A stretch of DNA of 32,000 bases. Source: Candidatus Saccharimonadota bacterium (lineage in GTDB: Bacteria; Patescibacteriota; Gracilibacteria; Absconditabacterales; Absconditicoccaceae). Each line of letters starts with the position of its first letter. The stretch's first letter is position 1. Below, one piece after another: positions 6,657 to 32,000 of this stretch. Both the position numbers and the translations under genes were made by a program. Below the pieces are notes generated by a model that saw only the letters and a program-made list of their open reading frames with translations, did no database searches and was not told where the DNA came from. The DNA lies in NCBI GenBank assembly GCA_965231145.1, contig OZ246420.1, forward strand, positions 90,001-122,000, given 5' to 3'.

Positions 6657-6887
6657 TGCGAAATGCTAAATTCTCAACAACTTTAAGACATAAAACTGAA
6701 AACTAAAATCTTTTCTAAGGATATCTTCATTAATGATATTACCTATAAAAAATTAAGACTTAAGTTTTTAGGTTTGAGTTGTTGTTGAGTTTATATGTGA
6801 ATAAGGAGGAGTTTGCAAAGGAAAAACAGTTGTTGAAAATTATGATCTGAATACTTATTATCTCGCTACAACAAAAAACACGACACT

Positions 6888-7535: not shown

Positions 7536-7550
7536 AAAGTATATATAATT

Positions 7551-7582
7551 AAAAATCCGCAGTTTTTGCTGCGGATTTTTTT
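7551..7582. terminator. Bidirectional rho-independent terminator between convergent pyrE and gene 7592..9511
   Basis: The sequence is aaaaATCCGCAGtttttgCTGCGGATtttttt. It has a perfect 8-bp stem (7555..7562 with 7569..7576) and a 6-nt loop. An A-run lies on one side and a T-run on the other, so it works in both orientations. Confidence 0.85.
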
Positions 7583-7591
7583 GTCGTTAGA

Positions 7592-9511: not shown

Positions 9512-9541
9512 AGTGAAAGCCGTGGGAAGGTAAAAGGTATG

Positions 9542-10696: not shown

Positions 10697-10703
10697 GACG
10701 TTT

Positions 10704-12149
10704 TTAATAACTACACTTTCCTCATACATTGGTACATTGATATTCGCAGGCTTCATTTAAGTTCTTGGTAATACTCTTGTCTTTTTGAGCATCGCCGAGC
10801 AGATTGGTCGTGTCGTGTACCATACTGCTGACCGCAGGGATCTTTTTAGTCACTACCAGCGGATCTGCAAGCACATGTTTCTGCCACGACGCCTTGCTTT
10901 GTGCGAGTGTCTCATCGACCGTACTATTGAGCTTTGCATAAAGATTTAACAGTGCGCGGTTTGTCGTCGAGTCTGGGGTAATGATGTCGAGCGGAGCAGG
11001 TTCCGGTGCAAATTGTACTTTCGTCATACTTGACGAATCTTTGCTATAGATCTCCTTCTGGCTATTGATCGTTGATGAAAGCCCATTTCCAAGGTTTGTT
11101 ACTTTGTTGGCAGCCTTTTCTGTATGCTCATCTCATTCTTTATCATTTTGACTCTCTGCTTCATCTCCACTTTCCTCTTCATCAATATTCTCATCTTCAT
11201 CTTTGGTCGGTGGTTTTTCAATACCACCCACTCACTCTAAGAGCTTATTTTGCTGTTTATTGAAACCAGGCTTTTCGCAGTCTAGTTCTGTCTGACTCGA
11301 GAGTGTACATTTCCATTTGCGAAGGGACTCTCTGAGCTTGTCTTTTAACTCATTGGTTTTTGGCTTATCTTCTTCATTGATACTGTCAATATCTTCCCCA
11401 TATTCCTCATACTCACTGTCGCACGAATTGAAACCTCTTGCGCACTTATACTCTTCCACGAGTTTCTTATAGTTGACGTCCGTCAACGTGATTCCCGGAT
11501 CCTCTTTGTATTGAGCGGTAAATGCCTTGAATGCATCGGTATAGCCTCCGGCGATAAATCTTTTATATGATTGATTGAGAGATCGAAGAGCGGCCATAAG
11601 TGTTCCTACTGCAGAAGAGGGAGCACCGGAGGCTTTCATAAATGAGGAGTCATCTTCTCCGTATTTTTTGAGAACTTCACTCACTTTTTCCTGATAGTCT
11701 TTTGGAGGAGTCGAATATAAGCCTGCTTCTCCCAGTTCGAATATAGCTTCAGCGATATCATTGTCTATCTTTTCCAGTTTTTTCCAGTCTCTCATGAGAG
11801 CTTTTGCATTTGTCATGACTTCCAGTTCTTCGCGAGTTGTAGAGCTCTCGAGTTCTGTGTGGATGGTTCCAAGAAGAACGGCATAGGTAAGAACATTTTT
11901 ACCCTTACTATTGAGTCTTTCTACGATATTCTGCAATGTCTGGTCTCACTCTCCGCTACCATCGGACTCTCATTGATTAGTCATGTTTTTGAGTGTTTCG
12001 AGCATTTCATTAGAAAATTTGATGTATTGCTCGATGATCTGAGAGGTGTTGGAACATGTTTCGCATGATTGACCTTCTGCAAAAGCGACACCGTAGAGGG
12101 TGCCTGCTAATCATAGAAGAACTCATATCTTGAGCAGTCGTTTTTTCAT
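10704..12149 (-). CDS. Secreted protein of unknown function with an acidic linker, 481 aa
   Basis: ORFs 11232..11936 and 10722..11027 share a frame, with 7 in-frame TGA (12123, 12111, 11970, 11946, 11232, 11133, 10722). ATG 12147..12149 gives MKKRLLKI-G-VLL-G-LAGTLYGVAFA|EGQ. The stop is TAA 10704..10706. There is an acidic stretch DEDENIDEEESGDEAESQNDKE. Confidence 0.85.
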
Positions 12150-12170: not shown

Positions 12171-13424
12171 TTAATCTAATCATTGGAGGAGTGATCCAAG
12201 GCCTCACAAGCTACCGCCTCAACCACCACCCATTCATCCAAAAAGGCCTCATAGCCCGGCTAGTCAACCTCAGCCGCCTTCATCATCGCCTCCGTCTTCG
12301 CTTCCATCTCATAGAGACGGGAGGAGTCATTTGAGCTTGCTGAGTCATCCAAGTTTTGAAGTCGCTCATCCGAGGCTACCTCATAGACCTTTTCCTCATT
12401 TGAGGAGTCATTTTAACTTGTCAAGTCCGCCTAGTTTGCCCAATGCTCACTCTCCATCTCCGTTACCTCCGAATGTATCGGTGAGGTTTGATAAACCACC
12501 TCAACCACCAGCTCCTCATCCTATGCCTCCAAATCCTCCCGGTGTTCCTCATGCGCCTCATAGTTTGCTTTCCGGTGTTGAACATTCTTTAGTGCCGGCT
12601 TGTATTTTACCATTTACTGCAGAGAAGGTCTCGTTGAAATGAGAGAATTTATCTACTAACACTCATCGTCTTGTTTCGAGCAGATAGCTCTGGGTGTAGG
12701 TTTTCCATGTGTCCTTCATAAAGGTGTTTGCTTTTCTTGCCATCAGTAGCTGTATGTATGTCATCTCTTCGTCGATACGTCTTCTTGAGAGATCTTCACA
12801 GGCCTTTTGGTCATAGCGAGAGTCCAGGTCGCTGGAAACGAGGAAAAATTTACGAGCGACACATGATGACTGAATACATACTGCGGTGTATCTTGCTGAA
12901 AGTGGAAGGGAATCATAGTTGCTAATTTCACAACTTTCATTGTCTACTTTAACTCAACGCCACTTTGCTGGCTCCCAGATCTCAACAAATTTCGTTTGTA
13001 TGCTGACAGGTAACTTTCCTGTTCCAACGTCTGTTCGTTCTTTGACAGCATCTTTCCATTCTTTTGCTTTTGAGTCTTCGCTTCCTTCTACTTTGTTATC
13101 CAGTTTAAAGAAGCCTTTACTGATCAACTGGTCGAAGGCATAAGGACTTTCAGGATTATCTCTGTTTTCTTGAGCGCTTTCACAGCCTTCAGTGAGGATT
13201 TCTTGCTGACAGCAATATGCCTTAAGATTATCCATAGCAGTGTGCATGTCGTCAGTGCTAAGAGGCTTGTCGCTTTTGAGTTTCAGATTGTCTATAGCAT
13301 CTTTTGGTTCATGTATCACCAAGCTACAATCATACAACGTATCCGCAAAAAGAGGGGCGCTCCGTATGGAGAGCGCTCCTATGATGGTCAAACCTATGAG
13401 CTTTCGGATAGCATTGTGTTTCAT
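12171..13424 (-). CDS. Secreted protein of unknown function with an extreme Gly-rich, TGA-dense C-terminal tail, 417 aa
   Basis: ATG 13422..13424 gives MKHNAIRKLIGLTIIGALSIRSAPLFA|DT. The standard-code ORF stops at TGA 12954, but the frame stays open to TAA 12171..12173, with 21 TGA in total. Without read-through there would be an ~800-nt gap in an otherwise tightly packed operon. Confidence 0.8.
12174..12563 (-). repeat. Gly-rich low-complexity tail (~130 codons) in which 19 codons are TGA, containing a duplicated KLGGL(D/S)KLKGLL unit
   Basis: With TGA read as G the tail reads KLGGAGGTPGGFGGIGGGAGGGGGLSNLTDTFGGNGDGEGALGKLGGLDKLKGLLKGGKGLGGSLGGATSKLGGLSKLKGLLPSLGDGSEDGGDDEGGGGGLAGLGGLFGGMGGGGGGSLGGLGSLLQGLD. 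The DNA repeat gaggagtcatttgagcttg (12321) recurs as gaggagtcattttaacttg (12402). Confidence 0.8.
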
Positions 13425-13429
13425 GTCTG

Positions 13430-16400
13430 CTATGGCAACGGCTGAGGGATAAAGGTAGTGTTTCCTATTTCTTTTCCTTGAAGATCATAGAAGGTGATAG
13501 TGATATTACGATCTTTATAAGAGTATGTTCATCGATATTGATTTTTATAGGTATCTGGTAGTCGGATGTCTCATTTCGTGCTTATATAGATGTGACAGGT
13601 ATCCGCCTGAGCAATACATGTGCCATTGCTAAATCCATGCGCATATCCATCTGCTACTTTTTGTGGCTTCCAGAGATTAGTATCGACGACTATAGTATTT
13701 AGCGCTGTCTTTCCTGCGTACGAGAGAGAGAATAGTACAATGCCTGTCCTTTTCTCTTTGATAAGTACACGAGGTGTATTTGCAGTAAACGAAACTACTG
13801 TATCTATAGACTCTTTAAAGTAGCTATCAATAGATATTTCACCACTTTCTTTATCTACTGCTCCAATACGTGTTCAGCTGCTATTGTGCAGGTCGATGAG
13901 TGCGCTTTTGACAAATACGCCTCATGAGAGTGACAGTTGATTGAATCCAAGAGGGAACTGAGATGTGATCATATTGTCTTTCCCTTTACCAGTTAATATA
14001 GATCGGATGCCATCTCTTTCTCTTTCAAAGAGTATGCTACTCTTATCTTGTCATACAGATACTGTTGTCTGTATAACGTTTTCATTATTCATCGGTTCAC
14101 TGATGTCAGTAATATTTACTTGAGGCTGTTTCCATTGTATCTTGATCGTATAAGTTGCTATATTGTCGTTTTGATCGATGGCATTGATTTGCCACGTCTC
14201 TACATCTTCACCACGATATGAGAGCGATGCGAGCGTGTTTGCTCAGGTGTCAGCTTGCGAACTTCCGTCAGCAAAGGTAATTGCATTGCCTTTGACGCCA
14301 CTGCTGTCACGCCATTGGACGACGACTCCATAGTCATTTCCTATAACAGGTGACAGCGTATATCATTGCCCATCGATAGTTTTGCTTTCTACTCTTATGA
14401 GGGCTACCGTTGGTGTTGGTCAGAGGTCATCACCTGCCAATTGAGAGCTGGCTACCTCCTGGTGTGATCGAGGAGAAGACTTTTCAAGCAGTGCTCATCT
14501 ATTGAGCGTTCTATATGAGAGCTTCGCAAGAGACATGTATTGCCGTTGTCTTGGAAGTCCGTCCAGAGAGACAGAGAGAGTTTCTTCTTCCGGATTGAAG
14601 TACTGAATGCTGAGTATGCTCTTGTCGTTTACTAAGTCGCTTACTCTCTTTTGTCCAAATATTTCATCGTAGAGGAAGACTCATTGGAGATCTGTATTTT
14701 CTGGTAAGATGAGTACATATTTTCTCGTATCTTTATTAGAGCGGTGCATATATCTTGCTTCTACAGAGTTATTAATTTGTAAGATATAGCCTTGTCTATT
14801 ATCGTTGTTCCAGCGAAGTTGTATACTGTCATATCTTTGTCCATCGAGTGAGAATGCTTGTGGTGCGCTCCTTTCTGACCATATTTTGAACATGCTTCAT
14901 CCTATGCTCAATCGCCCATCTCTTTCTACCGCCTTCGCAATATCTGCAGGCGAAGAGAATGTCGGAGTAACGTAGAGACGCGTGAATGTTGTACCGTTGT
15001 TCGCTGGCACGGGTTGGCTGTATTTTATCCGGATTTGTTTGTTGTCCCACATGATGATATCGTCTGTAGCATCCCCGTTGAGATCAGTGCGAGACTGATG
15101 TGCTTGGAGCGTTGCTATATTGTCTTGTCTGTCGACAACATTTACCATCTCACCAGACGTGTTTTTTACAAAGACACCCTGTATGTACTGGCTGATATCA
15201 GGCTGGATCGTGAGAGTGCTTGTTGTGCTATGTGCATGGGCGGTATGTGATGCGTCCATAGTGCTAGTTACTGCAGCAGCGAGAAGAGGTTTTTTCTCTG
15301 CGTCTTTCTCAGTGTTACTCACCATCTCCAGTCCGTTGTCTATAGTAGTAATAGTCTTTTCTACATAGCTTCTTGTTTCGTTGTATGTGAGGAGCGACAT
15401 ATTGAGATCGGTTGGCCCATAGGTGTCGAGCGCATTTGCAAAGCCAGTCATTACTTTCTTGTTGAGTTCAAGGTAGCTCTTCATCGGATTTGGCTCATCT
15501 TTAATTGCTTTGATGATAGATTTGTCTGCAGTAAAGAGCGAACTTCCGAGTGTTGATGACTCTGTATCACTACTTACCAGGGTTGTCTGTAGCGATGTAA
15601 CGAAAGAGTCATAGTCATGGTTGATCTTGTCCTGCATAGATGAGATATCATTTTTTATGCGGTCTATGCGAGACTGAGCCTGATGGTTGACAGCATCTAC
15701 ACCCTCGATATTAGCCGCTGTATTGCTTGGAGTTGAGAGGAGTGCAATCACATGACGAAGGGTTCTTTTTCTCTCTAATGATGTATCAGCTTCCAGTAGT
15801 GCGTGTGCCTGTGTAAGCAGGTCTGTGCGAGCTTGGGCAGCATTGTCATAGCTTAGATCCCAGAGATGAGGAGATGTGAAGCTCTGAAGTGTGTTGGTAA
15901 TGCCTCCAGCTGTGTTTCCTCATCCAGCGCTTTCATCACTGACGTTTTTGATGATAGGATTGCTGTCCTTGTTTACTTGCTCTGCGTACTCTTCGAGCGT
16001 CTTATAGATTTCATCAAAGTTAAGCTGCATATTAATATAGGTGTCGACATGTATATCTGACCCCTGAACTGGTGGTTTGATCTTTGTAACACTGATAGAG
16101 TCAAACGGCTCTACCTTCCAAGTTCTCTGTGTCAGTTGTTCTACTCTTGTTTTGACTCACTTTTCTCCGACCATGCCGATCCCTCATTTTACGATACAGA
16201 AGATCTTTGCGATATATTCAGCATATTGGAGAGTGGCGATAATCTCTGGTGTGATTTTTGGAATCTTTGGTGCAGGCGGAAGGTTTGGCATGTCGAGTTC
16301 CACATTTGGTGTGAATGAAGGAAGCTCAGGAAGTTTTGGTGGTTCAGGAATTTCTGGTGCGCTTGGGATCGTAACGCTCAGCTGTCACTGGACACCTGCG

Positions 16401-19400
16401 GATGGTGCTGGTGGGATGTCTGGAATTTGTGGGAGAGGAATAGGCTTTGGTACAAAATTGAATTTTGGTAGAAGTATATCCATACCCATATTTATATGAG
16501 ACAGGTCGATGAACAGATGTGGCATCCTAAATGGAGGTATTGGGAACACTGGTAATGGAATGCAGAGGATGCTGAGTGTGCATGCATAGAAATCGTAATT
16601 GTCTACCTTACACTTTCCGCATTTTGTTTTCCAATTTACTGAGTAGTCTATAAGAGCCTGCCATGTTTTGATAGAACTTATGTTTTGCGTCATACCATTG
16701 ACGTACTGGTCGAACTTTCTTGAGTTTTTCTGTAGCCATTCAGTCAGGTTGTTTGTGAACTTAGAGACAGTATCAGACGCTTCCGTCAAATATCTTTGTG
16801 AAGCTCCCAGCCATTTGTCTAGTTCTTGAGGGAACTCCTTATATTTATCGAGTATTTCAATGTTCTTTTTTACTGTTTTTATCAGCTCTTCGTTTTTGCT
16901 CGTTATACTTCCGCCGCCAGCGCTATTTCGATCCTGTGCGGTCTTCTCATTTCTTTGGAGCCAATTATTTAAGTATGCTTTATATCTGACGATATCTTCT
17001 TGGGCTATGAAAGGCACTTGTACATTGATGTTTTTTGTGCTGATATTGATAAGCGGTACGTTTTCAAAGAGTGTTGAGAGTGCATCAAAAGGATTAGAAA
17101 CATCATTGTCATTGTTTCTCATACCTTCTTGTGTGAAGAGTTTTTGTGATACGTCTTGTCTTGATGATGGAGTCGGTTGATTCTTTTCTTCTTCAGGTTC
17201 CTCGTCGTAGAGCGCTCTTATCTTCTTCAGTGATACATCATCAAATCCCTTAAAGAGCGATGACATCTCAGGCATGTATACGTTGACTGAAACGGTTGTA
17301 AGATTGTTAATGATATACCTTATTTGTGGATCGAGCCGGTTCTTCATAAGACATTTGACGAGTCCTTTTACGTCTCATCCCTGTACTTCAAGTTTGACTT
17401 GTTCTCCTACTTTGAGTGTCTCACTATCCTGATTTCCTCCTCCTTCCCCACCTTCGCTTATATCTTCTATGGTGGGAGTAGTATTGAAATTAACAGAGCG
17501 CCCGTCGTATGAGCCGTCATTTTCTCCCTCAGCTGAAACCGATGGAATAACTTCTTTTATCTTACCCATGATGTCATCCATCATACCTCCGCCTTGTCCT
17601 TGACCTCATACAAGATTTGAAATCATCTTAAACGGAGAACCAGATTTTCATCATTTTAGTTGAGGTGTGCTGCATGCTCCTCCTTCTGCTGCGTCATATT
17701 GCCGCTGTTCAAGAGCGGGTCTTGCGTCTCCTGGAGTAATCTGTGCTTCATCTTTTTTCGCTGTTACCACACAATTTCCCGAGATATGTTTTACTGGATT
17801 TTGTAGGCTTGCTCCGGCTGCGTATGAGCCATAACACATAGCAACACCTTCCTTATTTGTTATAGCTGGTGAGTCATATACTCTTACATTTGATGGATAA
17901 CTACCTCCGCCCGCCCAGTAGAAACCATCCGTAGGAGACTTCTGACCATATGGAGCAGGTACGTCATATGCTCCAGGGCGGATAGTTCCTGGATAGAAGA
18001 GAGATGGAAGACCTTTGTCGTCAGTCAATTTACATCAGAAAACATTGTAGGTTCCTGGAGAGAGGAATGCTACATTAAATGGCGCTTGTGTTCATTGTTG
18101 AGCCATAGTTTTTTTGTATCCACCTTTTTCAGCTTGGAATCCCTTACAAAATCCTTGCACAGCTCCATCTACTTGTCTTTCTGTATCTTGAGTCATGCTT
18201 GTCAGTTGTGGATTGTTGCTACTCATATCAAGACTACCATTTTCAGAGAGGGACTTGTTGTCCCACTTTTCAAGTATCTGATCCATGCCAGGCATCTTGC
18301 TGATATCCGGATTGCTACCTTGTGATGCACCTTTGATCTTGCTTTGTATGTCGGTGAGCTTTGATGTCAGCGCAGAACTTTGTTGCTTTTGCATTTCTTG
18401 CATCTTTGGTGCAAGGTCGGTAAACGACTGGGTAAAGTTTTTTGTTCCATTTGATGTAAACTGTTCAAATCATTGCTGGCAGCTATCGGTAGAATGTGTT
18501 TTTATGTCAGTTGCCTGATCTCCGTTAATGTTACCGAGAGAAATATGTACTAATTTTGGTGCCTTATATTTGAGAACTTCGCTGAACGTTACGCTTTGTC
18601 ATCCTTTAAGTGAAATATTATCTATCATGTACTGATAGCCATTTTCCATATTCCAGTTTACGGTTGAGCCTGCTGGTAGACTTCCTTTGTTCCAGCTTGG
18701 TATTTCTCCTTCACTATTTTTACTAATTCTCCATGGTCACTTGATGTCATGCAGATAGGTAACCATTGTATCGCTTTTTGCTTCAATGGTTGTCTTCACG
18801 CGTACTTCTTCACCATCTACCAATGGTCCTGAAGATGGTTTTACTCTTTCATATTGTTTATATGTTACCACAGGAGATGTCTCGTCCAGCATGGTGCCTG
18901 GCATATATGCTATGGTTTCCAGGCTGTTAGCCGGTTCGTATGACGGTAAGGTGCTGATAGGTGATGCAGAATATTGCATGAGAGTCGGTAGCCCACTATC
19001 TATCATGCTTTGTATATTAAATCCAGAGAAGTCACTTTCTGTTCCCTTGAGGAGATTTTGTATCTGTGGATCAGCAGCAAGAGGGCTATCAGGGCTTTCT
19101 TCATTTACTTCTGGAGGAAGAGAAAGTCACTGCCAGTGAACCAGGCTGTTGTCGTATATCTTTTCATTTTCACTCAAAGTGACGCCATATGATTTGACTA
19201 ATTTAATATGATCTTCTTGTCTTGTCTTTCGCTCGCTATCACAGGTAACCTTATTTTTTGAAATGTAATTATCTCCTGCAGAAGTGCGTCCACCATAGAA
19301 AATCTTAATGTTGCCTGCGGTATCATTTGTAACGATATCGACCTTATTGTCTCCGTCCATATCATGCACAAAAAACTCATATGCATGAGCGATGCTTTGA

Positions 19401-22400
19401 TCTCAACCTGGTATATCTAAACAGACTTGCTTTCCATCGACATCTACAGTTCAACCATTGTTTTTATAGACTCTCAGTTTATCATGAGATGTCTGGATGA
19501 TGATATCCTCATAGCTATCTCCATTGGCATCGCCAGCAAAGGCATTTTTGATGCCATCATCAATAACCATAAGCATTCACAAGTCCTTATAAGGATCTTG
19601 CCCGCCTTTGTTTTTCAGAATCCTTGCAGATCAGTCGGAATATGTTACCAACAGATCCTTTTGTCCATCTTTGTCTACATCAAGAGGAATAGTTTTTGAG
19701 ATGCTTTTCTCTGTTTCTGTGAAAACTGTTTTTCATTGACCTCCATCGTAATTTGTTCCCGCAATTGTTGTGTTTTCGCTTTGACGTCCAAGCAGAGGAT
19801 CGCCAAGCGTAATAAGGAAAGGAGACGCTCCATGCTGAGTAGCTTTTCCTACTTTGTCTCCTTCGGCAAAAGCGGTTGCTGCATGAAAAGTGTTTTTCCG
19901 GTTTGTATTGGTATCAGTATCGACAGATTGCTCAATACCTCACTTCCATGGAGAAGATGAACCAAGAGGCACAGCATTTTTATCATAGATCATCCATCCG
20001 CGGCTGCTATTTGTTGATCCACCAAGCCAGATTGATTCAAGGCCGATGCTGTCTTCTAGATGAATATTACTGGTGTTTATAGTTGCGTGGATGCGTAGTG
20101 TTCCTACTATTTTTCCTTGTATTTTTACATTCCATACAGTATCCCCATTTGTATATTGATTGCTGTTTACTATCTCAGCGCTATTACCTGTAGATGAGTT
20201 TATGGACCATACAGGCGATCCATTGATCACGATAGTATTGTTTATGATCTCGTTGGTTTCAATAACGCTGTCTGTTTGGCGAGCCGTATAGAGAAGAGTG
20301 TTTTCGCCAAATGATTCATCTGCTGTTCCGGCTCTGAGAGTTAATGAGCTCGCGCTTCCTAATGCAATATATCCTTTTGTATTGAGATCATATGTCAACA
20401 CATTGTCTCTTTTGGTGAGACGTATATCTGATGCATCATAGATCTGACCATTGTTGTTGATACGAAGCAGTGCAGGGAGGATATTGTTTGGGTTGGTGAG
20501 AAGTGTTGTTACGGCAAGTGCTTTATCTGACTTTGTGAGGATGTTCTGCGCTTCATTTGATTGCTGTGAGAAGTAGTTCCATCTATTGCCTCGGTCGCTT
20601 CCAGCAAGTATCATATACATAGCATTGAGATTGTCTGTTTTCCAGAAAGGAGAAAGTATCGTTATCTTTTTTGCATCAGGCAACTGTGCCTCTGGTGCTA
20701 CTCATGCAAGAGTAGCATAAATATATTGTGTTCCTGCGGCTTTCTCGCTGCTAAGAGTAAATGGAGCGCTTCCGTTGGTTGCCGTAGTTACTTGCCCACT
20801 TGATGATCCATTTATCTTGATACCACCAATCGTATGGAGGTTGATGCTTACAGGAGCATCAATAGGGTTGTTCCATCTATCATATGCAAACACCTGTCCG
20901 CTGGTGTTTTTTTCAGCCAAGAAACTATCGGGTGCTTGGATGCCCACACGATATGGCTTTGCAGGATGGATAGTCACAGGTATAGTTTTTAGAGGAAGGC
21001 CTGGAATTTCTAGCGTGAGAGTGTCTTGTCCTGCTTGAAATGAAGGATAAAGGATAATCGTAGCAACGCCACCTTTGATGGTAAATGAAGATTGCTCTGA
21101 AAATTCTTTTGCGGTTACTCTTTGACCGTTAAGTGTATAGCTACTTTCTTTTACTCTTCCTGGAAGGAGGAGTCACTGAGTACTCTTGATGACACCATGT
21201 GTTTCTAAGGGTTTCTTATCTGGCGTAGTAAGTGTCAGTACGATCCTTGGAACCGCATTTTCCTGTAGCTGGTCAACGCCGTTTTGATTGCGGAAAAAAG
21301 CTGATGTGCTTTCAGGAAGAGTGATGTCTATGTGGGATGTATTTACTGTATTATGCTTCACCTCGAGGATTCATTCGGTGAGCGAGATTGTTTTTCTGAT
21401 AGGCGAGAGAGAGTCAGAAGAAATTGGTGTCAGTAGCAGCTCAACTTCTGCAGACGCAGAAGGAACGTCGCTCAAATCCAAGACGAACATCTCATTTTTA
21501 TCAAAACGTTGGAGTTCTATACCTGTCGTGATATTGCCGTTGGTAATGATTTTCCCTTGAGAAGAAGAGAGACGGAAGGTGTTTGTACTTTGTTCAACAG
21601 CATTTCAGTATGCATCATATCACATCACTGAGAAAGGCATCTCAGATCTTTTGAGTATTTTATCTGTCGGCGTAATAATAGTCGCAGTGACAAGAGGCCC
21701 AGCGATAACAGGAACGATAAGTTTTTTCTCTGTACAACGAACGTTTTGACAGATCTTTACTGTGAGGATACTTGCTCCAATATTTTTGCCCGCAAGAGCT
21801 ACTTTCAATGTACGAGGGGTCTTGTAAAGATCTCCCTGGAATGCATACTCAGCATTACACACATTTCTTCCTTCGATGATCGGACAGTTTTCTCCCGTTC
21901 CTGAGATACGGATATTAAGATTGCCGCTGTCCTTTAAACTTGCGATCGTCAGAGTTGCTCCACTTGTGTTGTCTACACTGAGAGTATTCTTATTGAGTCT
22001 CGCTGTAAGAGTGTTATCAAACGCCGCAATCAATGTTTGTGCTTCATCAGAAAGAGCCCCAAGAGATGAGTTTGTAAGAGACCTCCAAGTTGGGTTAAGT
22101 TCTTCTACGTTATCTCCTAGGGTGACATCGGTGTCTTTAAATTGCTGTGATATAAGTACAGGTCATTTTGCATTTGAGAAATTTACTTTCACTACATCAG
22201 AAATAGTTTGTTCCTGCATAGATTTCATCCAGCATCCTAGAGAAGCTGGCCATTGAAGCAGAGGTGTTGTGCCATCTGTATCAATACCACATTTTTTATC
22301 TCTTTCTGTTGCCTGCATATCAAGAGCCGCATTGACCGCGTCAGTGCTTGAAATCTCTGCCGTTGCTGCGAGTTTCTGTTGTTCTATATTGTTGATAACA

Positions 22401-25111
22401 GCAGGAGCTATTGTATTTTTCAGAGCATCATTACCATCTGAGTTGATATAGACAAGCTCATAACCACTTGCCTGATATCATGGGACAGATCCCATAGAAG
22501 GATTGTCTTGTTTCGTGATATAATTTTTCGTCACGTTGGCTATTTTCTTGTTAACGTCAAATGAGTGTTCGTTGTTCTTCAGATCGGTAAGAAGATCTGT
22601 TGAAGATGGTTTTTCAGATCGTCCAAGATTTTGCCAATAAAGTACATCAGCGATCGCTTTGATCGTCTCTTCACCGAGGGCGGTTATGAAAAAGTCTTCA
22701 GGAAGAAGAGCGTATGAGCGACTCTTAGGTGTCGCGTATGGATTGACTACAGCCAGTTTGTCAAATGCGATGCTCTTTGGCGCATAGTGTGTCGCAGCTG
22801 CGCTATTTTCTGTTGAGAGAGTTACATTTATAGCACTTACTTTCTGCTTGAGATATGCCTTTATACTCTCTGTTATCTCCTGAGGTGATTGGAGGGTTAG
22901 TTTTTCTCATTGTTTCTTATAGACAGAAACATTGTAGATATTTGGATAGTCAAATTTTACTGTACCACCACCTATACCTTTAAATGCAACAAACCTTGCG
23001 CTATCGATAGGTCTGTCAGCAGTAAGAGGACTCATGCCTTTCACTTCTTCAGGTGTCGGTGATGAGTGCGACTCAAGAGTGTCTATTGTTTTGTACACAT
23101 AATTCTCACCACACTCATGCGTACTTGTGTTGGTGTTTGTATTTGTCACAAAAATATGATCATTGTAATCAGCAGTTGCGACCTTAGAGAAATATTCAAC
23201 TTCTATAGGGGCCTTGATCGGATGACCATTGTATCGATTTTCATTGACCTCTCCTGGAGGTACTATTTCTCAACATATTACTCGTGGGGCAATGCGAAAC
23301 TGTTGTGTTCTATGTAGGAGTGAGTTATTGAGTTCATCAAGAAAGAAAATATCTGTATTCATTTTTTTAAGAGTGAGCTTTGATCCCGCTATGTCGTAGA
23401 CGGGTCATCCAATGGTTGTATCAAAGCGCGGATTCCATGCCATCTTTGGATCGTTTTGCTTGAGCTGGAGCGTGTTCCCATCTACATTGAGAGGAGTCAT
23501 GCCTCCTCGGTATTTGTTTACAAAATCATCAAGTGTTTGTCTGTCGTTACACTTTCTTGCATTGTAGAGTTCGATATCTTTAGATATAAGTTCGATATTA
23601 TAACCTCTAGAGCTTTCTACCTGTCTTGAAGAGATACCATATGAAGCACCTATGGATCTTGCTGTATAGTCCAATGGTATATCGTCCTGCTGACCTTGAG
23701 TAGCATAATTATATGATGTCAGGTTTTGTCGACTTCATATGTTTTTCCATGTACCACGATAGATAGAGATGTCATTGGTAGATGTTACATCAAAAGCACT
23801 CTTTCCAAAATAGAAATTTTCATATCTTCCCACGAGTTTCTTTGGTACAAAATCCGGTGGTAAAACTGGTGGTACAGGAACACACTCATACTCTTCGTAG
23901 ATTAGTGGAATAGGAATATGAAGAGCATAGTTACCTGTTTGTAGTTTTTCGTAGAGAGCCTTTTCAAGTACGCTATTTGCATCGAACAGCGCCGTGCTTG
24001 TTAAGGTGTCTTTCACCACAGTTTTTTTGATATGACTATCAACGTTGGCGGCGTTCCATCTTCCACCTGCAATAATGTTTTGATCGATGTTTGTAAGATA
24101 CTCGGGTGCGAAGAGAGAAGTATATGGCTGTACGAGAGAAAGCAACGCTGTTCACATCATAAGGGTTGGTATCTTTGCGGTCTCGTTTCCTAATTTCTCA
24201 AGCGTTTCAGCGCTATCCGCGGCGATAGCTGTTAATCACTTTTTCCATTTGTCTATTTCTGCTTTATAAGTACTTCATTCAGTTGATAACTGTGAGTAGG
24301 ATTCTTCATTTGGAGAAAGCTTTTGAGCGTCATCACCTATAAGCGATAGGGCGTTATTATTTGCAGCGTCTTTGAAGTAGTCGAATATAAGATTTGTATA
24401 CCTGTGATAAGTGATGTCTTCGTGAAAAAGAAAGTTGTTAATATAACCAGAGAGAAACTGATCAGCAAAATATTTTTTTAATCCAATAAAATCATCGTAC
24501 CGTATTTTGGTAGATGTGTAATTTATTGGATTTTGTTTGTAGTTTCTCAGCTTGTCGAAAAACTTAGTGTATTGATCATCCTGATCTTCAAAGTTGATCA
24601 TGCTTTGCCATATATCTGCCTTGTGATCGCCATCGTCCTCAGTAACAAAATAGGTAGAAGCTGGATCGTATACATAACTAGGTTTCTCAAGGTCTGTATA
24701 TGGGTATATGCTTGGATAGATATAGCTATTTTCACGTATAACCGGCAATGGGATATCTCCTATGAGGATAGTTCCTATAAGAGAAGAAGGGTTTTTTTGG
24801 TTTCCTTCTTGGTAAAGATTTTCTAATATCTTCCATATGTCATAGGCCTGAAAATTGTTTTTATCGATAGGCAAGAGGATGGCTTTTGTATTGTTACTTT
24901 GCGACTGGAGATATTCCTGAGCATACCAATTTATGTTTTCTTTATGCTTATCGTAAATGTTCTTCTCTACGAATACGGCAATGATATTTTCGTGTATTTC
25001 TTCTGCAGCATATACGTTGCTAGAAAAGCCAAAAATCCACTGTGTGAACGAGTGGGAAAAGAAGTACACGCAAAGCAATATACCTATGGCTGTTTTTGTT
25101 TTCAACGACAT
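13430..25111 (-). CDS. Giant secreted/anchored multidomain surface protein, 3,893 aa, with FG-GAP/integrin-like and Ig-like repeats and Pro-rich and Gly-rich linkers
   Basis: Sixteen listed minus-strand ORFs from 14681..14893 to 24275..25132 all lie in the same frame. I translated every gap between them and the whole of 13430..14681. There are 45 in-frame TGA and no TAA/TAG until TAG 13430..13432. ATG 25109..25111 gives MSLKTKTAIGILLCVYFFSHSFTQWIFGFSSNVYA|AEE. An in-frame TAG lies upstream at 25145..25147. Confidence 0.85.
19270..19800 (-). other. FG-GAP/VCBS-like (integrin alpha beta-propeller type) repeats inside the giant protein
   Basis: Three Ca-binding-type loops occur: DVDKDGQKD (19655..19681), GDANGDSYED (19505..19534) and HDMDGDNKVD (19337..19363). 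They are spaced ~50-57 aa apart. Each is followed by a hydrophobic strand and then an N-x-G turn (ILKNKGG, VYKNNG-G, KIFYGG). Confidence 0.6.
20702..21730 (-). other. Tandem bacterial Ig-like (Big_1/invasin-type) repeats inside the giant protein (tentative)
   Basis: The repeats read ...PFSVM-G-YDAY-G-NAVEQSTNTFRLSSSQGKI... and ...GQVFAYDRWNNPIDAPVSINLHTIGGIKINGSSSGQVTTATNGSAPFTLSSEKAAGTQYIYATLA. They follow the pattern V-x-a-x-D-x-y-G-N-P-v ... T-d-x-n-G-x-A ... G ... v-x-A typical of these domains. Confidence 0.5.
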
Positions 25112-25224: not shown

Positions 25225-25254
25225 AAAAAAGTCTCCTTATAGAGAGGAGACTTT
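25225..25254 (-). terminator. Rho-independent terminator of gene 25276..26961, separating it from the giant-protein operon
   Basis: The minus-strand RNA reads aaaGUCUCC-ucucuauaa-GGAGACuuu, followed by more U (plus-strand a-run 25225..25230). The GC core is 6 bp and extends to 9 bp with A:U pairs. It lies 22 nt downstream of TAA 25276..25278. Confidence 0.8.
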
Positions 25255-25275
25255 CTTGAAAAGAAAATAAGTGTT

Positions 25276-26961
25276 TTATATGCCGTTGATAGAGAAGAAG
25301 TTTTCCATGTCTGTCATGTAGTCGTCATAGAGACCCTGAAGTGTTTGATCTTCTGGAGATAATCTCAGTGCGTTTCTTGTGTCAAGGAATGGGATGTATA
25401 TATCACTACAAAACTCTTTCACGTCGTCGAGGTTTATGCCCATGCTTCTTCCTTGTACACACATATAGTAAGCAATACCTTGTGTTGTAGTTTCATCATC
25501 GCTATCTCTATTGTTCTCAAGAATATCAAGTCTTGCAGAAAGATCAGCTATAGTGTCTCTATTTGCGATGTACTGATCGTACATATCTTGAATAGTATCA
25601 ATGTCAGCGTAGTCGAGTCTGAGATCTTCTACTGTGTCATTGAGAGCTTTCACTGCTTCGATCACGAGAGCCATGATGTTAGGATACTGTACAGACTTCT
25701 TTCCATCCGGTTGCGTCTTTACGAGCTGTGGAAATACTGCTTCTACTTCCTGCGCGAGAAGACCTACATCATGTCTTCCGTTTGCTATCCAGTCGAACGT
25801 ATATCCATTGAGATCCATAATTTTATCTAGGGGATTTGTGATCTTTACGATATTTTCTTTCAGGGTCTCATCAGAGATGATATATACTGAGTCTGTGAGG
25901 ATGTCTCCTTCTACATGAAGCGTTGCTCCTGGAGTTGAGGTTCCGATACCAACATCTCCACCGCTATAATATATCACGCCAGCTCATCCATCTCTCCAGT
26001 AACCACTAGCTGTTACTGATGATGGCATAACGACCAGGTTACCCAATGCGTCAACTCCAAGATTTCTTACTCACAATCCACCGTATGAACTGAAACGAAC
26101 CTTACCCACAACGTCAAGCGCTCCTTCCGGAGTATAGTTGTTGATACCTACGCGAGTACCTGTTACAAAGAATGCAGTCGCTGCAGCTGGAGTAGTACTA
26201 CCATCTGGATAGAGTATCTCACCACTTGTATCTACTCTGAAAGGTCCTTTTACGTGAAGTTTGGCAAGAGGAGTATCAAGACCTACTCCAACATTTCCAT
26301 CATTATCAGGATAGAAAGTTCCATAGTATATATCATAAGGATTTCAAGGAGAAACGTGCCATAAAGATGCTCCAGATGCGCTAAATGAACCGCCTCCTGA
26401 AAACGCATCTCCACATATAATCGCTCCTGTAGAAGTCCATCCCATAAGCACGCCTGACACACCACAACTTCCTGCTGAAATAATAGGCACGCATGTAGGT
26501 ACTCCTGAAGCTACACCCACAAGTACTTCACCGGCAGGACAGCTTACTGTTGTCGTACCACCTCCTGAACCCGCACCTCCTGTGAGGACGAACGAGAGCA
26601 TTTCAGTTGTGATAGAACCTGGTGCAATGTCTCCGCTTCCGATAAGTCCTCTCGTGATATACCCAAGAGAGTTAAGTCTTAGTACTCCTTCCGTTGGGCC
26701 ACCTAAAGAGCCGCTGTCCACCCAGATACCACCTGTACCAAGTACGATTTTAGTTGATCCTGATGGAGATCCATCTGTAGTGATGCGAAGTTCTCTGAAC
26801 GTACCAATAACATTGTTAATGGCGCTTTCGATAGCAAGATCGGCGTGAGTAAATGAAAGAGACAGTCACGCAAGTCCTATAAGAGCACACACCATAGTTA
26901 TTCCCTTTAGCAGAGGATGCTTTGGCATATGCTTTGTAAGATCTGTTTTGTTGTATAGCAT
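25276..26961 (-). CDS. Secreted tail-fibre-like protein with C-terminal peptidase-S74 intramolecular chaperone domain, 561 aa
   Basis: ORFs 26344..26721 and 25276..25977 share a frame, with in-frame TGA at 26866, 26344, 26071 and 25984. The stop is TAA 25276..25278. The start is ATG 26959..26961, or ATG 26926..26928 which gives MPKHPLLKGITMVCALIGLA-G-LSLSFTHA|DLA. The unit (N/D/R)VG(V/I)G-x(2)-TP-x(3)-LHV-x-G is repeated. The protein then reads ISDETLKENIVKITNPLDKIMDLNGYTFDWIANGRHDVGLLAQEVEAVFPQLV...VQYPNIMALVIEAVKALN. Confidence 0.85.
25620..25875 (-). other. Peptidase_S74-type intramolecular chaperone (auto-cleaving) domain of gene 25276..26961
   Basis: The signature S-D-x-x-L-K-E-N-I ... 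G-Y-x-F-x-W ... G-(L/V)-x-A-Q-E-V-E ... P-x-L-V ... Y-x-x-(I/L) ... A-(V/I)-K-x-L is known from phage tail-fibre and endosialidase C-terminal chaperones. The candidate cleavage Ser codon is 25873..25875. Confidence 0.7.
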
Positions 26962-27012
26962 GATGTAGAGAATATATTAATAAAGAAGTTTAATTATGTT
27001 GATTAATCTTTC

Positions 27013-30000
27013 TTATCTAGGTATGGATATGCCGTTGTCTCTGAAGAAGGTTTGAAGATTTATCAAAGCTAGATTATAAGCGCCTTCTAAATCTCTATTT
27101 TTTGGAGCACTCTCATGATTTTCCTTTGCTGTTTGGTAGGTTGGATAGATGGTGTTACATAGATTGTCGATATTTTGTGGATTGAGGCCATGTTCATCTG
27201 TTCCATTACATATTTCTTCTGAGAGAAGTTCAATCGCTGATTTTTTGCTTGTTGGTTGCTTAGGATTTCTTGCGTCCCATGCTTCTCCATTTTCGAGGGA
27301 GGCGATACGCAGTTCAAGTATCGCTATCTGATCTTGCTGTGCTTCCAGTCTTGCTGCTCATGCATTCATCATCTTTGCATCGAGTTCTTTAAGTGCAGAG
27401 ATAATCCCCGCAAGCAGATTTGGATATTCAACAGCGCGTATGGTTGTATCGCCTTGTCACTGCTGTCATTGTTGTTGTCACTGCTGGGTTTGTCATAAAC
27501 CACCTTGTGCTGGTGATGAAGGAGTTCATCCTATATCTCTGCTGCTTACCGTAAATGATCTTACGGCGCTTGGATAGATAGAGGCAATTTCTTGAGCTAC
27601 AAGTCCTACATCATCTCTTTGAGAACGAATCCATTTAAATGTATATCCTGTCAATGATAGTATATTGCTAAGGCCATTGGATATCTTGTTGATATTTTTT
27701 TTCACATTTCGATCTGATACTATATATGTCGCATCCGTAAGGATATCTCCATTGACATGAAGAGTAGCACCAGGAGTATCAGTCCCAATACCTACAGATC
27801 ATCCGCTGTATGAGAGTATGCTATTTCAAGCGTATAGATTTTCATCCCATTGTTCTCAGAGTACTGACATAGAAGATCATGTCGTGAGAAGTTCTCCCCA
27901 AGAATTAGCTCCTAAATATGAATATCCTGGTGTCAATACCGAGCGGAATAATATGTTACCTACAACATGAAATGCAGTGTAAGGTGTTTCGGTATTTATA
28001 CCAACCCTAGATCATATCACAAAAATATTAGCTCAGTTATAAGGGATCGTTGTTGCTCCGATAACTCATGCGCCACCACCTGGAGGAGTAAGGGCGGCAT
28101 TTGGAGCGCTTGCTCCTGTGAAAGGAATGTAAGTTGGCATTTGAATACCAAACGAATGATATAGCGTTGTTCCTCCTGAGTCAAATGTATCATGACAAAG
28201 TGATGTGCCCGAAGGTGTGATTTCTATAGTCATGTCTACAGCTGGTTGAACAGCAGGAGCGTCGTATGGAGGATAGAGTATGCTTACGCCCAATAATTCG
28301 TTTGCCTGTGTTGTAGGATGAACGATGGAGCAATCTTCTGTCATAGGGTCTAGGTCGCAAGAACAATTTACAGAACTTATGCTTGTAGACGTTTGTATAA
28401 CAGGGCTTGTAAGTGCGCGAAGGTATCATATGAGTGTTCAGCTAGCAGGTGACTGATATGCATCATAGTATGGAACGCCCCCCAGTAGATAATTATCGTA
28501 ACATGTTCGTATAGACGTGCTAAGCATTGCTCCCGTTGGTTGATATGCATCTACGATCGTTCCGCTTCCGGCTCAACAGTTTTGAGTGGTTATGTCGACA
28601 TCGCAATCACATCTTGGAGTGTTTGGTATTCAGCTTGGATTTGATATGGTTCTTGAAAAATTGTACGTATATCATAAAAACCCACCAGCAGTATCAGAGT
28701 ATTGATATGGTGCTTGTATTAATCCATTATTGTCTACTCTAAATGTAGCAGCTGTGCTGAATCCTGTTCCTCCTGTTCCAGAAACTCATCCTGTAGTGAG
28801 GATAGTTCCATATCTTCTAAAGAAGTGTCCAGGAAAGTATTCCATGTCTGTATATGCCAATCAGCTTATACCTACATCCATACACATCGGTCCATCGTCA
28901 CCATTTGTGAAGCCATATCCACAATCAAAAGAGTCTGGATCCAAATCACATGCACATCTCGGAAGAAGTTGTCCAACCGGAGGATAAATAGGAGCTCCAG
29001 ATCCTGTATATTCTCCACGAATAATGTTTGGCACAGGACTATACGTAAGTGTTCCTCCTACTGGAGATCAGCTACCAGTATGATATGTTACCGTAAGTCT
29101 ATGCTCTACAGAAGTGTTGGTTGTTATGTTGAAATCAAAACAAGCGTTTAGTCCTGGATGAATCCATATTGCCGGAGATCACTGTATTGTTGTGGATGGA
29201 CTTGAACATGCAGCATCTGTTGCATACATGTTTGTGTCACATGGGCAGCGGAAACCAGCTGCGAGCCCCTCTACAAAACCGTACTCATACTCGAGACTGG
29301 TAGCGCCTCAAGTACTTCCTTCACATACCATGCCAAGATCAAATTCCATTCATCCGTACCACTGAGATAGATACTCAATACCCCCAGACGTGAATGATTC
29401 AGTACACTGCGAATCTCCTTCGTTATCATTTGTGGCAATGTATTCCATAGGATACGAAGGGTATGGTCCTGTTCCACCAGCATAACGAAGACATTTTCCG
29501 GGAGTTGTTGGATCTTCTGTTTCACATGCACACATTGGCAATCCTGCTGAAACAACGCTCGTATAACCAGGACTTCACATAGGGTATTCTCCTGCGAGTT
29601 GCACGAAAGCGTAGCCAGTTGACGGAACCAGATTACAAGCACACGAACTATTTGTCACTGTTTTATGAACATATTGTAATCCTTCTGATCGGTGTTCAAG
29701 TTGTACTACTCATCATGACATATAGAGTTGTACACACTGTTCTCCATAAAAGCTCCCCGTCATCTGGGCATTGAGGAAAATTGATCATGTAGCAAAAACA
29801 AGACACTTCCCCGGATACGCCGGATCAGGATTGAAACAATTACAAGGCGTCATAGATGCAAAATCCGAAAAATATGGAGAGCTTGGTGTTATAGGAGCAT
29901 CCCCAAGAGTGTAGACATATCAGTGGACAGTTGTTGACACACTACTTCATGACCCTGCTTCACAGAGAGTTGTGTTGGAAGGATAAGAAACATGAAGCTT

Positions 30001-30762
30001 TGTAAGTGGAGTGTCGCGCCCTACCGCAACTCCCTCGAAACATGAGTCTCCGTCAAATCACATCCCTGGCGTATAACTTTGACCAAGTCATCCCATCCCT
30101 TGTTGCGTAGGGTCTTCACATCCTTCGATTTTGCTGTAGTAGATATCGAAAGGAGTAATAGACGAAATTGTTCGTAATTCTCCAGAACCCGCGCTAAATG
30201 AACCACCTGTTCCACTACAATCAGGAAGTCCAAGACTGATCCATCATACAAATGTGGTTCAAGGAGTACACATGGGACTTGGTAGTATGCTTACAAGCGG
30301 AGCTGGTGTACAGATCGCTGTTCATCAAGAAAATCACGCTATCGCTTCTCCTGCAGGACATGAACCATCGCTAAATCAACCAACTCCGCCTCAGAGAGAA
30401 TATGATAAAATGTCAAATGCAAACATCTCTGTCGTGAGGCTTCACGAGGCAATGCGAGATCCATCTATCGTATCTGTACGAGAAAAACGTCCGTCCGGAG
30501 CGATGAGAATGTCTTCTGTGCCTACAGCGTCAGGAAGCTTTATAAGATGGTCATTCGTTCCTGAAAACTCTACGAGAGCACTGCTTGATGCGTCTCCATC
30601 TGTAGTGATAAGGAGTTTTTGAAAATAGGGAATATCCCTCAGGATGCTTGTATCAAGAGTAAGAGCACTTACGCTTTCTGAAATAAGAGCTGCCGCTCAG
30701 AGGCTAAGAGCTAGCGTGACAAGCCGCTTTTTGTTTCACTGCTTTTGTTCCATAACGAACAT
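27013..30762 (-). CDS. Secreted tail-fibre-like protein with ~6 Cys-motif modules and a C-terminal peptidase-S74 chaperone domain, ~1,249 aa; paralog of 25276..26961
   Basis: I translated the frame codon by codon from 30786 to 27013. It contains 42 in-frame TGA and no TAA/TAG between TAA 30784..30786 (upstream bound) and TAA 27013..27015. Starting at ATG 30760..30762 or 30751..30753 gives MEQKQ-G-NKKRLVTLALSL-G-AAALISESVSA, a signal peptide. It shares SLTTEM, CPAGE and VGIGTDTPGATLHVNGDILTD with the paralog. It also has SDRNVKKNI...GYTFKWI...VGLVAQEI...VEYPNLLAGIISALKEL and a similar C-terminal end (FFRDNGI versus FFSINGI). Confidence 0.8.
27370..27717 (-). other. Peptidase_S74-type chaperone domain of gene 27013..30762, interrupted by a Gln/Gly insert
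   Basis: The signature matches that at 25620..25875. An extra segment, SSRDIG-G-TPSSPAQGGL-G-QTQQ-G-QQQ-G-QQ-G-QGD, lies between the AQE and YPN blocks. Confidence 0.65.
28330..29844 (-). repeat. Six protein-level modules (~80-115 aa period), each carrying a C-x-C-(D/E/F)-x-(D/N/E)-(P)-x(4-9)-C motif
   Basis: The six motifs are TPCNCFNPDPAYPGKC (29803..29844), PMCACETEDPTTPGKC (29491..29532), FRCPCDTNMYATDAAC (29206..29247), PRCACDLDPDSFDC (28921..28956), PRCDCDVDITTQNC (28576..28611) and VNCSCDLDPMTEDC (28330..28365). Confidence 0.7.
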
Positions 30763-31229: not shown

Positions 31230-32000
31230 ATGAAAAAACTACTTATTTTGATGAGCTTTGTTTGCTCATTTTGTGTTCCTGTTTTCGCTCAGTTCGTAAC
31301 GAATGAGATACAGGTTGTTACTAAAGCGCCTATTGTGTGGAATAGTAAAGAACAGTCAGCGGAATTCCTTGAAAAATTTCCTGCGGGTTCTAAGGTTGTT
31401 AACTGTGCTGACATAACATTGTTCAGCCAGCAAGAAGACCTTGTAAGGCAGGGGAGATATTGGGGAACTCTATTTCTTGTTCAACTGCCCACCTCGAACG
31501 CAAGTACACTAGTTTCCACTAAGCAAGCATTGCTTGAAAATGATGAAAGTGTTGTTAAGGACGTCTACTTAAATGTTGTAGGCTCTTCAAACTCGTCTAC
31601 TCCAATTACTTTTTCAGACCCTGTTTTTCCTTATGACATGCAGTATAACGCTGCTGCGATAGCGGGGGGTGTAAAGTACACCGGCTGGCAACATGCTAAC
31701 GGCTATATATTCTATAATACCGATAGAATATTAGTTGGAGTAATAGATGGAGGCGCTAATTTGTCTCACCAGGATGCGGTTAATTCCTATTATATTAATG
31801 CTTTGGAAATAGCGGCAAATGGTATTGATGACGACATGAATGGAAGGATTGATGACGTGAATGGTTGGAATTTTGTTTCTAGTAATAATAATGTTGCTGA
31901 TGACAATCCTATCGGACATGGCACAGTTGTTTCTAGTGAATTGGGCGCTCGTAACAACAATTCAAAGAATACTGTTGGTTACTTGTCAGACTCAATGTCT
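31230..32000 (+). CDS. Subtilisin-like serine protease (peptidase S8) with signal peptide; 3' end outside the window
   Basis: ATG 31230..31232 opens 257 codons with no stop of any kind to the window edge. This ORF is absent from the supplied track. The N-terminus is MKKLLILMSFVCSFCVPVFA|QF. The catalytic Asp block is ILVGVIDGG (Asp 31746..31748). The Ca-loop-like segment is NGIDDDMNGRIDDVNGWNF. The catalytic His block is DNPIGHGT (His 31917..31919). Confidence 0.85.
   Translation, partial: MKKLLILMSFVCSFCVPVFAQFVTNEIQVVTKAPIVWNSKEQSAEFLEKFPAGSKVVNCADITLFSQQEDLVRQGRYWGTLFLVQLPTSNASTLVSTKQALLENDESVVKDVYLNVVGSSNSSTPITFSDPVFPYDMQYNAAAIAGGVKYTGWQHANGYIFYNTDRILVGVIDGGANLSHQDAVNSYYINALEIAANGIDDDMNGRIDDVNGWNFVSSNNNVADDNPIGHGTVVSSELGARNNNSKNTVGYLSDSMS

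Follow-up and report, generated by a model that had tools for sequence, protein, structure and literature searches.

Do two neighbouring genes whose products end like phage tail fibres belong to a virus or to the bacterium that carries them, and what might such proteins do for a cell? The genes, here called fibre genes A and B, lie on the minus strand of a 32,000-nt stretch of contig OZ246420.1 (positions 90,001–122,000, assembly GCA_965231145.1) from a bacterium belonging to the Candidate Phyla Radiation (CPR); the whole stretch is referred to as the window. Gene A occupies window positions 25276–26961 and gene B 27013–30762, which are exactly the coordinates given in an original prediction that had described the two as exported, tail-fibre-like paralogs with phage-type S74 auto-chaperone domains. 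In our assessment, A and B are probably chromosomal, co-transcribed cellular proteins of phage-tail-fibre-like design and candidate host-attachment fibres. The idea that they are cellular fibres exported by the Sec pathway also remains the best reading of the locus, given the S74 matches and the lack of a prophage context. A cellular, S74-chaperoned fibre is not a new kind of system, the design being already known from predatory Bdellovibrio.

A Peptidase_S74 chaperone domain in both proteins

Read in genetic code 25, gene A encodes 561 and gene B 1249 residues, numbered from the first ATG of each gene; some database queries (phage, IMG/VR, and NCBIfam) used a 550-aa form of A, offset by +11 to the present numbering. 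All features of A and B given below lie on the minus strand. The Peptidase_S74 profile (PF13884) matches A at residues 363–415 (E = 4e-17, 62.7 bits) and B at residues 1016–1068 (E = 1e-11, 45.2 bits), at a cut-off of 22 bits. The 58-position Pfam model excludes the long helix of the domain. In A, the intramolecular chaperone core comprises residues 363–455 (25597–25875) as delimited by Pfam, structure model, and Foldseek, and in B the Pfam-based domain comprises residues 1016–1135 (27358–27717). The C-terminal motif block quoted in the original prediction is present in both proteins, as SDETLKENI, LLAQEVEAV, VQYPN, and EAVKAL in A and as SDRNVKKNI, LVAQEIASI, VEYPN, and SALKEL in B. Each protein contains a single SDxxxK motif, which provides the predicted catalytic residues Ser363 (25873–25875) and Lys368 (25858–25860) in A, and Ser1016 (27715–27717) and Lys1021 (27700–27702) in B. 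Both Ser and Lys are invariant in 32 diverse homologs, and the SDxxxK motif is found in 8/8 family members.

An AlphaFold2 monomer model of the TGA-free segment A 327–561 matches solved chaperone domains in its predicted order of a small β core followed by a long C-terminal helix. The S74 core together with a 60-residue helix (A 357–486) reaches a predicted local distance difference test (pLDDT) score of 86–98, and a single helix spans A 426–485. Its best PDB matches in Foldseek are the intramolecular chaperone auto-processing (ICA) domain of MyRF (7DC3; E = 5e-5, probability 1.00), 3GW6, and 3GUD, and 348 viral S74 models are matched as well. The long C-terminal helix, or coiled-coil continuation, of A (residues 456–489; 25495–25596) occurs in all orthologs, and orthologs end just beyond it; in B, a coiled coil (residues 1136–1165) and an optional tail (residues 1166–1249) together cover 27016–27357. 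The extension past the S74 core that had been noted earlier is real, with 123–124 aa following the A(V/L)K block, but about 50–65 aa of it belong to the long helix that a chaperone domain normally has.

Alignments of A with B and with orthologs delimit a Q/G-rich insert of about 40 aa within the S74 domain of B (residues 1073–1112; 27427–27546). Its coding sequence consists of CAA/CAG runs with five TGA codons interspersed (..QQGQQQGQQGQG..). The insert is missing from the B orthologs in three related loci (L001, L002, and L081, described below), and looks like a recent low-complexity expansion that uses TGA as Gly.

Ahead of the S74 domain, both proteins have a putative β-helix, the shaft of A covering residues 216–362 (25876–26316; motif scan and match to Bd2133) and the pre-S74 β-helix of B residues 906–1015 (27718–28047; motif scan and A/B alignment). 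The repeated VGIGT-type units of the original prediction correspond to capping loops of the pattern VG(I/V)G..P...L(H/D)V, of which a motif scan finds exactly three per protein. They lie at A residues 224–237 (26251–26292), 271–284 (26110–26151), and 337–350 (25912–25953), and at B residues 245–258 (29989–30030), 920–933 (27964–28005), and 990–1003 (27754–27795), the first loop of B being located inside its variable insert. A 219–353 aligns to the β-helix of Bdellovibrio Bd2133 (PDB 8OND; phmmer, PDB sequence search), and phage tail-fibre profiles (PHROGs) extend back to about A residue 300. Moreover, BLASTP supports the claimed paralogy at both ends, with E = 2e-24 for A 19–240 against B 12–261 and E = 2e-53 for the C-terminal regions.

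Signal peptides and a common N-terminal domain

Both proteins start with a predicted signal peptide, as had been claimed, identified by a heuristic analysis of n-, h-, and c-regions. It comprises residues 1–40 in A (26842–26961; predicted cleavage THA↓DL; kept in four A-type orthologs) and residues 1–33 in B (30664–30762; predicted cleavage VSA↓LTL; kept in four B-type orthologs). In 8/8 orthologs and paralogs, the n-region is rich in K/R, the hydrophobic core spans 15 residues (mean Kyte–Doolittle hydropathy 2.1–2.5), and small residues occupy −3/−1, with predicted cleavage at THA↓DL in A-types and after VSA, VHA, or AAA ahead of LTL in B-types. The upstream start of A, MLYNK.DL.KH, is kept in orthologs, while comparison of ortholog starts allows an alternative start of B at Met4 (nt 30753). 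After removal of the signal peptides, the number of Cys residues is even in both proteins (6 in A, 36 in B), consistent with extracytoplasmic disulfides.

The signal peptide is followed by a domain common to both paralogs, A 41–215 (26317–26841) and B 34–212 (30127–30663), which are homologous in the A/B alignment and 48–63% identical between orthologs. In A, it contains two C..G.VL.G...G...C hairpin units with four invariant Cys. The N-domain has no Pfam or PDB match, and relaxed profile searches gave noise only. A HMMER pass over 1.84 billion representatives returned 15 matches, seven of them real; all seven are short cellular-type fragments as typical of code-25 genes called with the standard code, and one is the window's own open reading frame (ORF). 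The weaker matches P0128–P0135 were rejected as unrelated secreted proteins that have only the CPxGxVLxGxxxGxPxC hairpin in common with the N-domain.

This C-P-x-G-x-V-L-x-G-x-x-x-G-x-P-x-C hairpin unit is found twice in each N-domain (A residues 141–183; 26410–26541). It forms long tandem arrays in the unrelated secreted proteins of other bacteria just mentioned (P0128–P0135) and occurs once or twice in other S74 fibres (P0046 and P0050). The disulfide hairpin appears to be an undescribed mini-module.

A variable insert in B and an optional C-terminal tail

B contains a variable insert of about 690 aa (residues 213–905; 28048–30126), which carries 30 Cys in 6–7 units of about 95–100 aa with the signature (PR)CxC(D/E)-x7-10-C-x12-44-C. 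The insert is only 18–31% identical to orthologs, compared to 48–53% for the N-domain. Conservation of fibre A is even, with no part that is hypervariable. The number of CxC(D/E) units also varies, from one in the A-types of L001 and L081 to four to six in B-types. No homolog of the insert was found at E ≤ 1e-3 in an index of 5.8e9 proteins, it has no Pfam match, and self-BLAST revealed no significant internal repeats beyond the Cys signature.

The optional tail of about 72–84 aa (A residues 490–561, 25279–25494; B as given above, tail alignment) consists of three predicted helices (pLDDT 53–75) with two Cys on adjacent helices, Cys501 and Cys518 in A and Cys1185 and Cys1202 in B. It leads to an FFxxNGI ending, FFSINGI in A and FFRDNGISIPR in B, so that the last residues before the stop codons read NFFSINGI and TFFRDNGISIPR, respectively. 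From the catalytic Ser to the end, tail-less family members count 123–142 residues, compared to 199 in A and 234 in B. In the window both A and B carry the tail, in L002 A alone does, and in L001 and L081 it is missing from both genes. No homolog of A 462–561 was found in the 5.8e9-protein index, and relaxed Pfam and PDB profile searches of the tails gave noise only. Because most orthologs lack the tail, the FFxxNGI ending is a lineage-specific add-on rather than a hallmark of the family. The FF(S/R)xNGI motif of the original prediction thus stands near the end of A and B, but not as a family feature.

A chromosomal B–A cassette next to a giant gene

Among the 12 proteins of the window, only A and B have tail matches in PHROGs, confined to the last ~100–200 residues before the tail, and the 10 other proteins include no phage structural genes by the same search. 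Genes for capsid, portal, terminase, tail tube, baseplate, or integrase were found neither in the window nor in the syntenic loci. Phage (GenBank) and IMG/VR matches to A cover residues about 276–484 only, with ≤50% identity, and its N-domain and tail have no match in either collection. The best relative, P0001 (E = 7e-131), is encoded on a 937-kb contig in locus L001, where a subtilase gene on the opposite strand, a B-type S74 gene, an A-type S74 gene, and a giant gene follow each other, flanked by rhodanese, helix-turn-helix, CYTH, and deamidase genes. The B–A–giant order recurs in L002, on a metagenome-assembled genome labelled 'Patescibacteria group', and in L081, on a 91.5-kb metagenome contig. 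Genomes and metagenomes were each scanned with a single restrictive peptide pattern, so that the counts of two loci and one locus, respectively, are lower bounds. Since phage structural genes are missing and the B–A–giant order is kept in related genomes, A and B are not prophage-borne, in agreement with the earlier statement that the window holds no other phage genes.

The giant downstream neighbour (13430–25111, minus strand) is a secreted protein of 3893 aa with FG-GAP_3 as its sole Pfam match; its orthologs are 54–61% identical and adjoin the fibre pair in L001, L002, and L081. Directly 3′ of the A stop codon lies a terminator-like hairpin with a 13-bp stem and T-run (25225–25257, minus strand). 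A hairpin plus T-run follows A in 4/4 loci (−14.6 to −19.9 kcal/mol for the equivalents in L001, L002, and L081), and no such hairpin lies in the 51-nt B–A spacer. Because the terminator follows A and none separates B from A, the arrangement points to a two-gene co-transcribed B–A unit and to a separate transcription unit for the giant. The original prediction had placed the fibres next to a 'giant adhesin operon'; the giant does adjoin them, but in a separate unit behind a conserved terminator, and the label 'adhesin' rests on one FG-GAP match.

On the other side of the cassette, a divergently transcribed gene for a secreted subtilase (S8 family, PF00082) at 31230–32000 (plus strand) is cut by the window end and has the same position in L001. 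The L001 subtilase ortholog (2820–6398, minus strand, 1192 aa) has precomputed matches to Ig_7 and Por_Secre_tail. The latter, a C-terminal sorting domain of type IX secretion, would not be expected in a CPR bacterium.

Locus L082 encodes, at 4063–5118, a further member of the family that is short and divergent (P0020, 351 aa). Its gene is located between IF-2 and peptidyl-tRNA hydrolase genes and a large gene (5245–10482) for a 1745-aa secreted Cys-rich protein. Here too, the gene for a very large surface protein has a fibre gene directly upstream. The large neighbour of P0020 was considered as a relative of the window's giant and rejected, the two not being homologous.

TGA as glycine and the fate of the family in databases

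Under translation table 11, the ORFs of the window are fragmented and too short to be usable, while TGA as a sense codon yields 12 long ORFs; reading TAG or TAA as sense brought no gain. In alignments of eight family genes, residues opposite TGA codons (n = 301) are Gly in 58% (background 10%) and Trp in 0.7% (background 0.8%), and the latter rules out code 4, in which TGA encodes Trp. Given the Gly-rich, Trp-poor residues opposite TGA and the long TGA-sense ORFs, the source bacterium therefore uses code 25, the code of Gracilibacteria and SR1, as the original prediction had assumed.

In A, TGA encodes Gly at residues 32, 206, 297, and 326, which is 5% of its Gly codons (4 codons), compared to 28% in B (42 codons). 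The relatives show the same bias: with these included, TGA counts are 42, 10, 36, and 35 in B-types and 4, 6, 3, and 14 in A-types. In the other genes of the window, TGA accounts for 0 to 30% of Gly codons.

Public protein collections contain the family only in two forms, TGA-cut fragments of 77–193 aa (P0121–P0127) and full-length entries in which Trp replaces Gly (P0001 and P0020); window ORF 26344–26721, a part of A, is itself deposited as fragment P0121. Consequently, surveys with the standard code under-detect and mistranslate this fibre family.

Comparison with known fibres and chaperones

The closest described parallel is the mosaic adhesive trimer (MAT) family of Bdellovibrio bacteriovorus, 21 surface-displayed trimeric fibres with signal peptides (Caulton et al, 2024; PMC10769870). 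Their invariant N-domain of ~130 aa is presumed to bind a cell-surface element, their β-helices carry V-G-x-G..P...L capping loops, and their C-termini are either S74 domains with SDxxxK (13 members) or other adhesive tips; for one of them, Bd3182, self-cleavage at the S74 serine has been shown (PMC10769870). S74-like MATs are listed for further lineages associated with predators, namely Oligoflexia, PVC, Alphaproteobacteria, FCB, and OP3, with Patescibacteria not among them (Table S3 of PMC10769870). The phage-type design named in the original prediction is therefore shared with phages yet not peculiar to them, being established in Bdellovibrio and other predators.

Like the S74 subgroup of MAT fibres (e.g., Bd3182), A and B are chromosomal, start with a signal peptide and an N-domain common to paralogs, and combine a β-helix that bears V-G-x-G..P...L capping loops with variable parts of mosaic make-up and a C-terminal S74 domain containing SDxxxK. 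In addition, the whole C-terminal half matches a Bdellovibrio 'tail fiber domain-containing protein' by sequence. The A/B system differs from the MAT family in its host, a code-25 CPR bacterium, in the position of the variable Cys-rich modules, which are internal and not at the tip, in having two paralogs in one cassette instead of 21 dispersed genes, and in the optional tail that some members carry on the chaperone. An N-domain homology to MAT was tried and rejected, with an hhalign probability of 0.13% against P0050, P0019, P0031, and P0043. Because the N-domain is not homologous, we treat A and B as fibres that would work like S74-type MAT fibres, without filing them in that family.

With the chaperone domains of K1F endosialidase (3GW6), the GA-1 neck appendage (3GUD), and the T4-like/S16 gp37 distal tip (6F45), A and B share the S74 fold, the Ser–Lys dyad, and the location of S74 at the C-terminal end of a β-structure, which is trimeric in phages. 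The likeness to phage fibres ends at the last β-helix repeats and S74; A and B differ from them in their signal peptides, in an N-domain unlike that of phages, and in lacking a virion context. The best structural match, MyRF ICA (7DC3), illustrates that S74 domains also occur in proteins of cells rather than viruses. A eukaryotic transcription factor tethered to the membrane, MyRF sets free a DNA-binding trimer upon cleavage; unlike MyRF, A and B have no DNA-binding domain or C-terminal transmembrane segment.

Other CPR bacteria encode 'tail fiber domain-containing proteins' (P0013 from Azambacteria, P0016 from Paceibacterota, and P0066 from Minisyncoccia) that resemble A and B in their GNVGIGT..P...L repeats and C-terminal S74. 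Their N-termini differ, with a transmembrane anchor followed by AWT.P...PP..N motifs, and neither the A/B N-domain nor the CxC(D/E) modules nor the tail are part of them. To our knowledge, no study has dealt with these proteins, which go by database names only. In a full-text search, no literature turned up that links S74 or intramolecular chaperones to CPR. Vampirococcus, a code-25 relative, is an epibiotic predator with a fibrous surface and giant surface proteins, whose sticky cells stack (PMC8080830). Pili and giant or VCBS proteins are discussed in the papers on Vampirococcus and Gracilibacteria, but fibres of this kind are not.

Other features of the window

A gene at 12171–13424 (minus strand) encodes a secreted 417-aa protein, the C-terminal third of which is almost pure Gly with GGL.KLKGLL repeats; TGA makes up 30% of its Gly codons (21 codons), and it has no match in Pfam, NCBIfam, or PHROGs. 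Two adjacent genes at 349–2328 and 2368–5313 (both minus strand) encode paralogous multi-pass membrane proteins (BLASTP E = 9e-25 and 6e-16) with LLAG..IQ.SWF.MGALID.S.VAT in common, the larger one ending in a P/T/N-rich tail of ~150 aa. Neither matches a family in Pfam or NCBIfam, and the pair may belong to a surface or secretion apparatus. A ribosomal protein L10 leader at 75–230 (minus strand; Rfam, 45.2 bits at a gathering score of 44) suggests that the rplJ operon probably begins just past the left edge of the window. Finally, ORF 9542–10756, counted from its first ATG, overlaps the 3′ end of ORF 10704–12149 by 53 nt (10704–10756, minus strand); either the overlap is real or a later ATG is the true start of the downstream gene.

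A working model for the fibre pair

Taken as cellular attachment fibres, A and B would mature and act in five steps. Judged from their N-termini, both chains would be exported by Sec, with removal of a signal peptide of 33–40 aa. Outside the membrane, the S74 domains of three chains would associate and nucleate folding of the preceding β-helix; domain identity, fold, and motifs are found in A and B, and it is knowledge of the S74 family that suggests trimerisation. The Ser–Lys dyad (S363/K368 in A, S1016/K1021 in B) would then cut the chain and free the chaperone together with the long helix and the optional tail, leaving predicted mature fibres A 41–362 and B 34–1015. The catalytic residues are in place, and the behaviour of other S74 proteins argues for cleavage. 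More speculatively, the common N-domain would dock the two fibres to a single element of the cell surface, much as has been proposed for MAT, with the conserved neighbouring giant protein as a candidate partner. Lastly, the distal parts, in particular the fast-evolving CxC(D/E) modules of B, might bind host or prey surfaces, a speculation suggested by the pattern of divergence, the Bdellovibrio precedent, and the way of life of cultured code-25 relatives, which are epibiotic or predatory.

Several points weigh against this reading. Export, trimerisation, self-cleavage, and host adhesion are all steps that we infer, and the lifestyle argument draws on cultured relatives, not on the source bacterium. 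Signal peptides were called by a rule-based n/h/c check only. Besides the signal peptide, no lipobox, sortase signal, or transmembrane segment was found in A or B, and because no anchor motif was found, retention of the fibres on the cell is an assumption. The structure predictions are monomers in which N-domain, shaft, and Cys modules are poorly modelled, the full-length ortholog P0001 reaching a mean pLDDT of 56 with its shaft and CxCD regions below 40. Furthermore, the 40-aa low-complexity insert in the S74 domain of B might affect its function, and the most variable region of B is a central one, rather than the stretch immediately ahead of the S74 cleavage site. Fibre tips of phages and MATs usually sit right before that site.

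The missing anchor would be explained if A and B were soluble fibres or enzymes, processed by S74 and then released, e.g., as tailspike-like depolymerases or bacteriocin-like binders of host envelopes. S74 also ends endosialidases and tailspike depolymerases, one of which, 3GW6, was matched by our model, and a secreted subtilase is encoded next door. However, no glycosidase or other catalytic domain was detected in A or B by Pfam and NCBIfam even at relaxed thresholds (NCBIfam gave no match for A, B, and two neighbours), an N-domain kept in two otherwise different fibres fits a docking module, and MAT fibres of the same design are displayed on the surface (PMC10769870). We thus regard release as unlikely.

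The conserved position beside a giant surface protein and several secreted or membrane proteins in a row, the even conservation of fibre A, and the stacking of sticky Vampirococcus cells (PMC8080830) could be read in terms of envelope or self-adhesion filaments, which would form an S-layer-like structure or mediate intraspecies stacking without recognizing a host. The central insert of B, however, diverges far faster and its module number varies between genomes, which is typical of receptor-binding parts, and a core envelope component would not be so narrowly distributed and so variable. This alternative, too, has a low probability.

That A and B are cargo of a prophage, remnant, or tailocin, assembled on phage-like particles, is very improbable: Although the last ~150–200 residues before the tail match dozens of tail-fibre PHROGs, 674 phage records, and 77 IMG/VR contigs, the particle and integrase genes listed above are missing, four genomes have one chromosomal neighbourhood in common, virion fibres that assemble in the cytoplasm would not be expected to carry signal peptides, and the N-domain, the end by which a phage fibre docks to its virion, has no phage match.

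For the preferred host-attachment fibres, a more far-reaching version can be formulated, in which the B–A cassette and the giant form a dedicated, clade-specific attachment apparatus. The N-domain would plug both fibres into the giant, the shuffling CxC(D/E) modules of B would set host range, and the optional tail, helical and stapled by disulfides, would lend the cleaved chaperone a second function after its release, e.g., as retained cap, regulator, or signal. We consider this version rather doubtful.

Implications for host recognition in CPR bacteria

The significance of the locus is limited, as the general design is known, the clade is tiny and uncultured, and the functional steps are inferred. 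Host recognition by CPR/Patescibacteria is nevertheless a largely open question, for which the literature consulted mostly names type IV pili and giant proteins of unspecified kind. Here, the locus offers two sequence-defined attachment candidates with a testable signature, the predicted self-cleavage at S363 and S1016. It would extend the theme that bacteria borrow the phage-fibre design for cell–cell recognition to a recoded lineage of CPR bacteria, the cultured relatives of which live as epibiotic predators.

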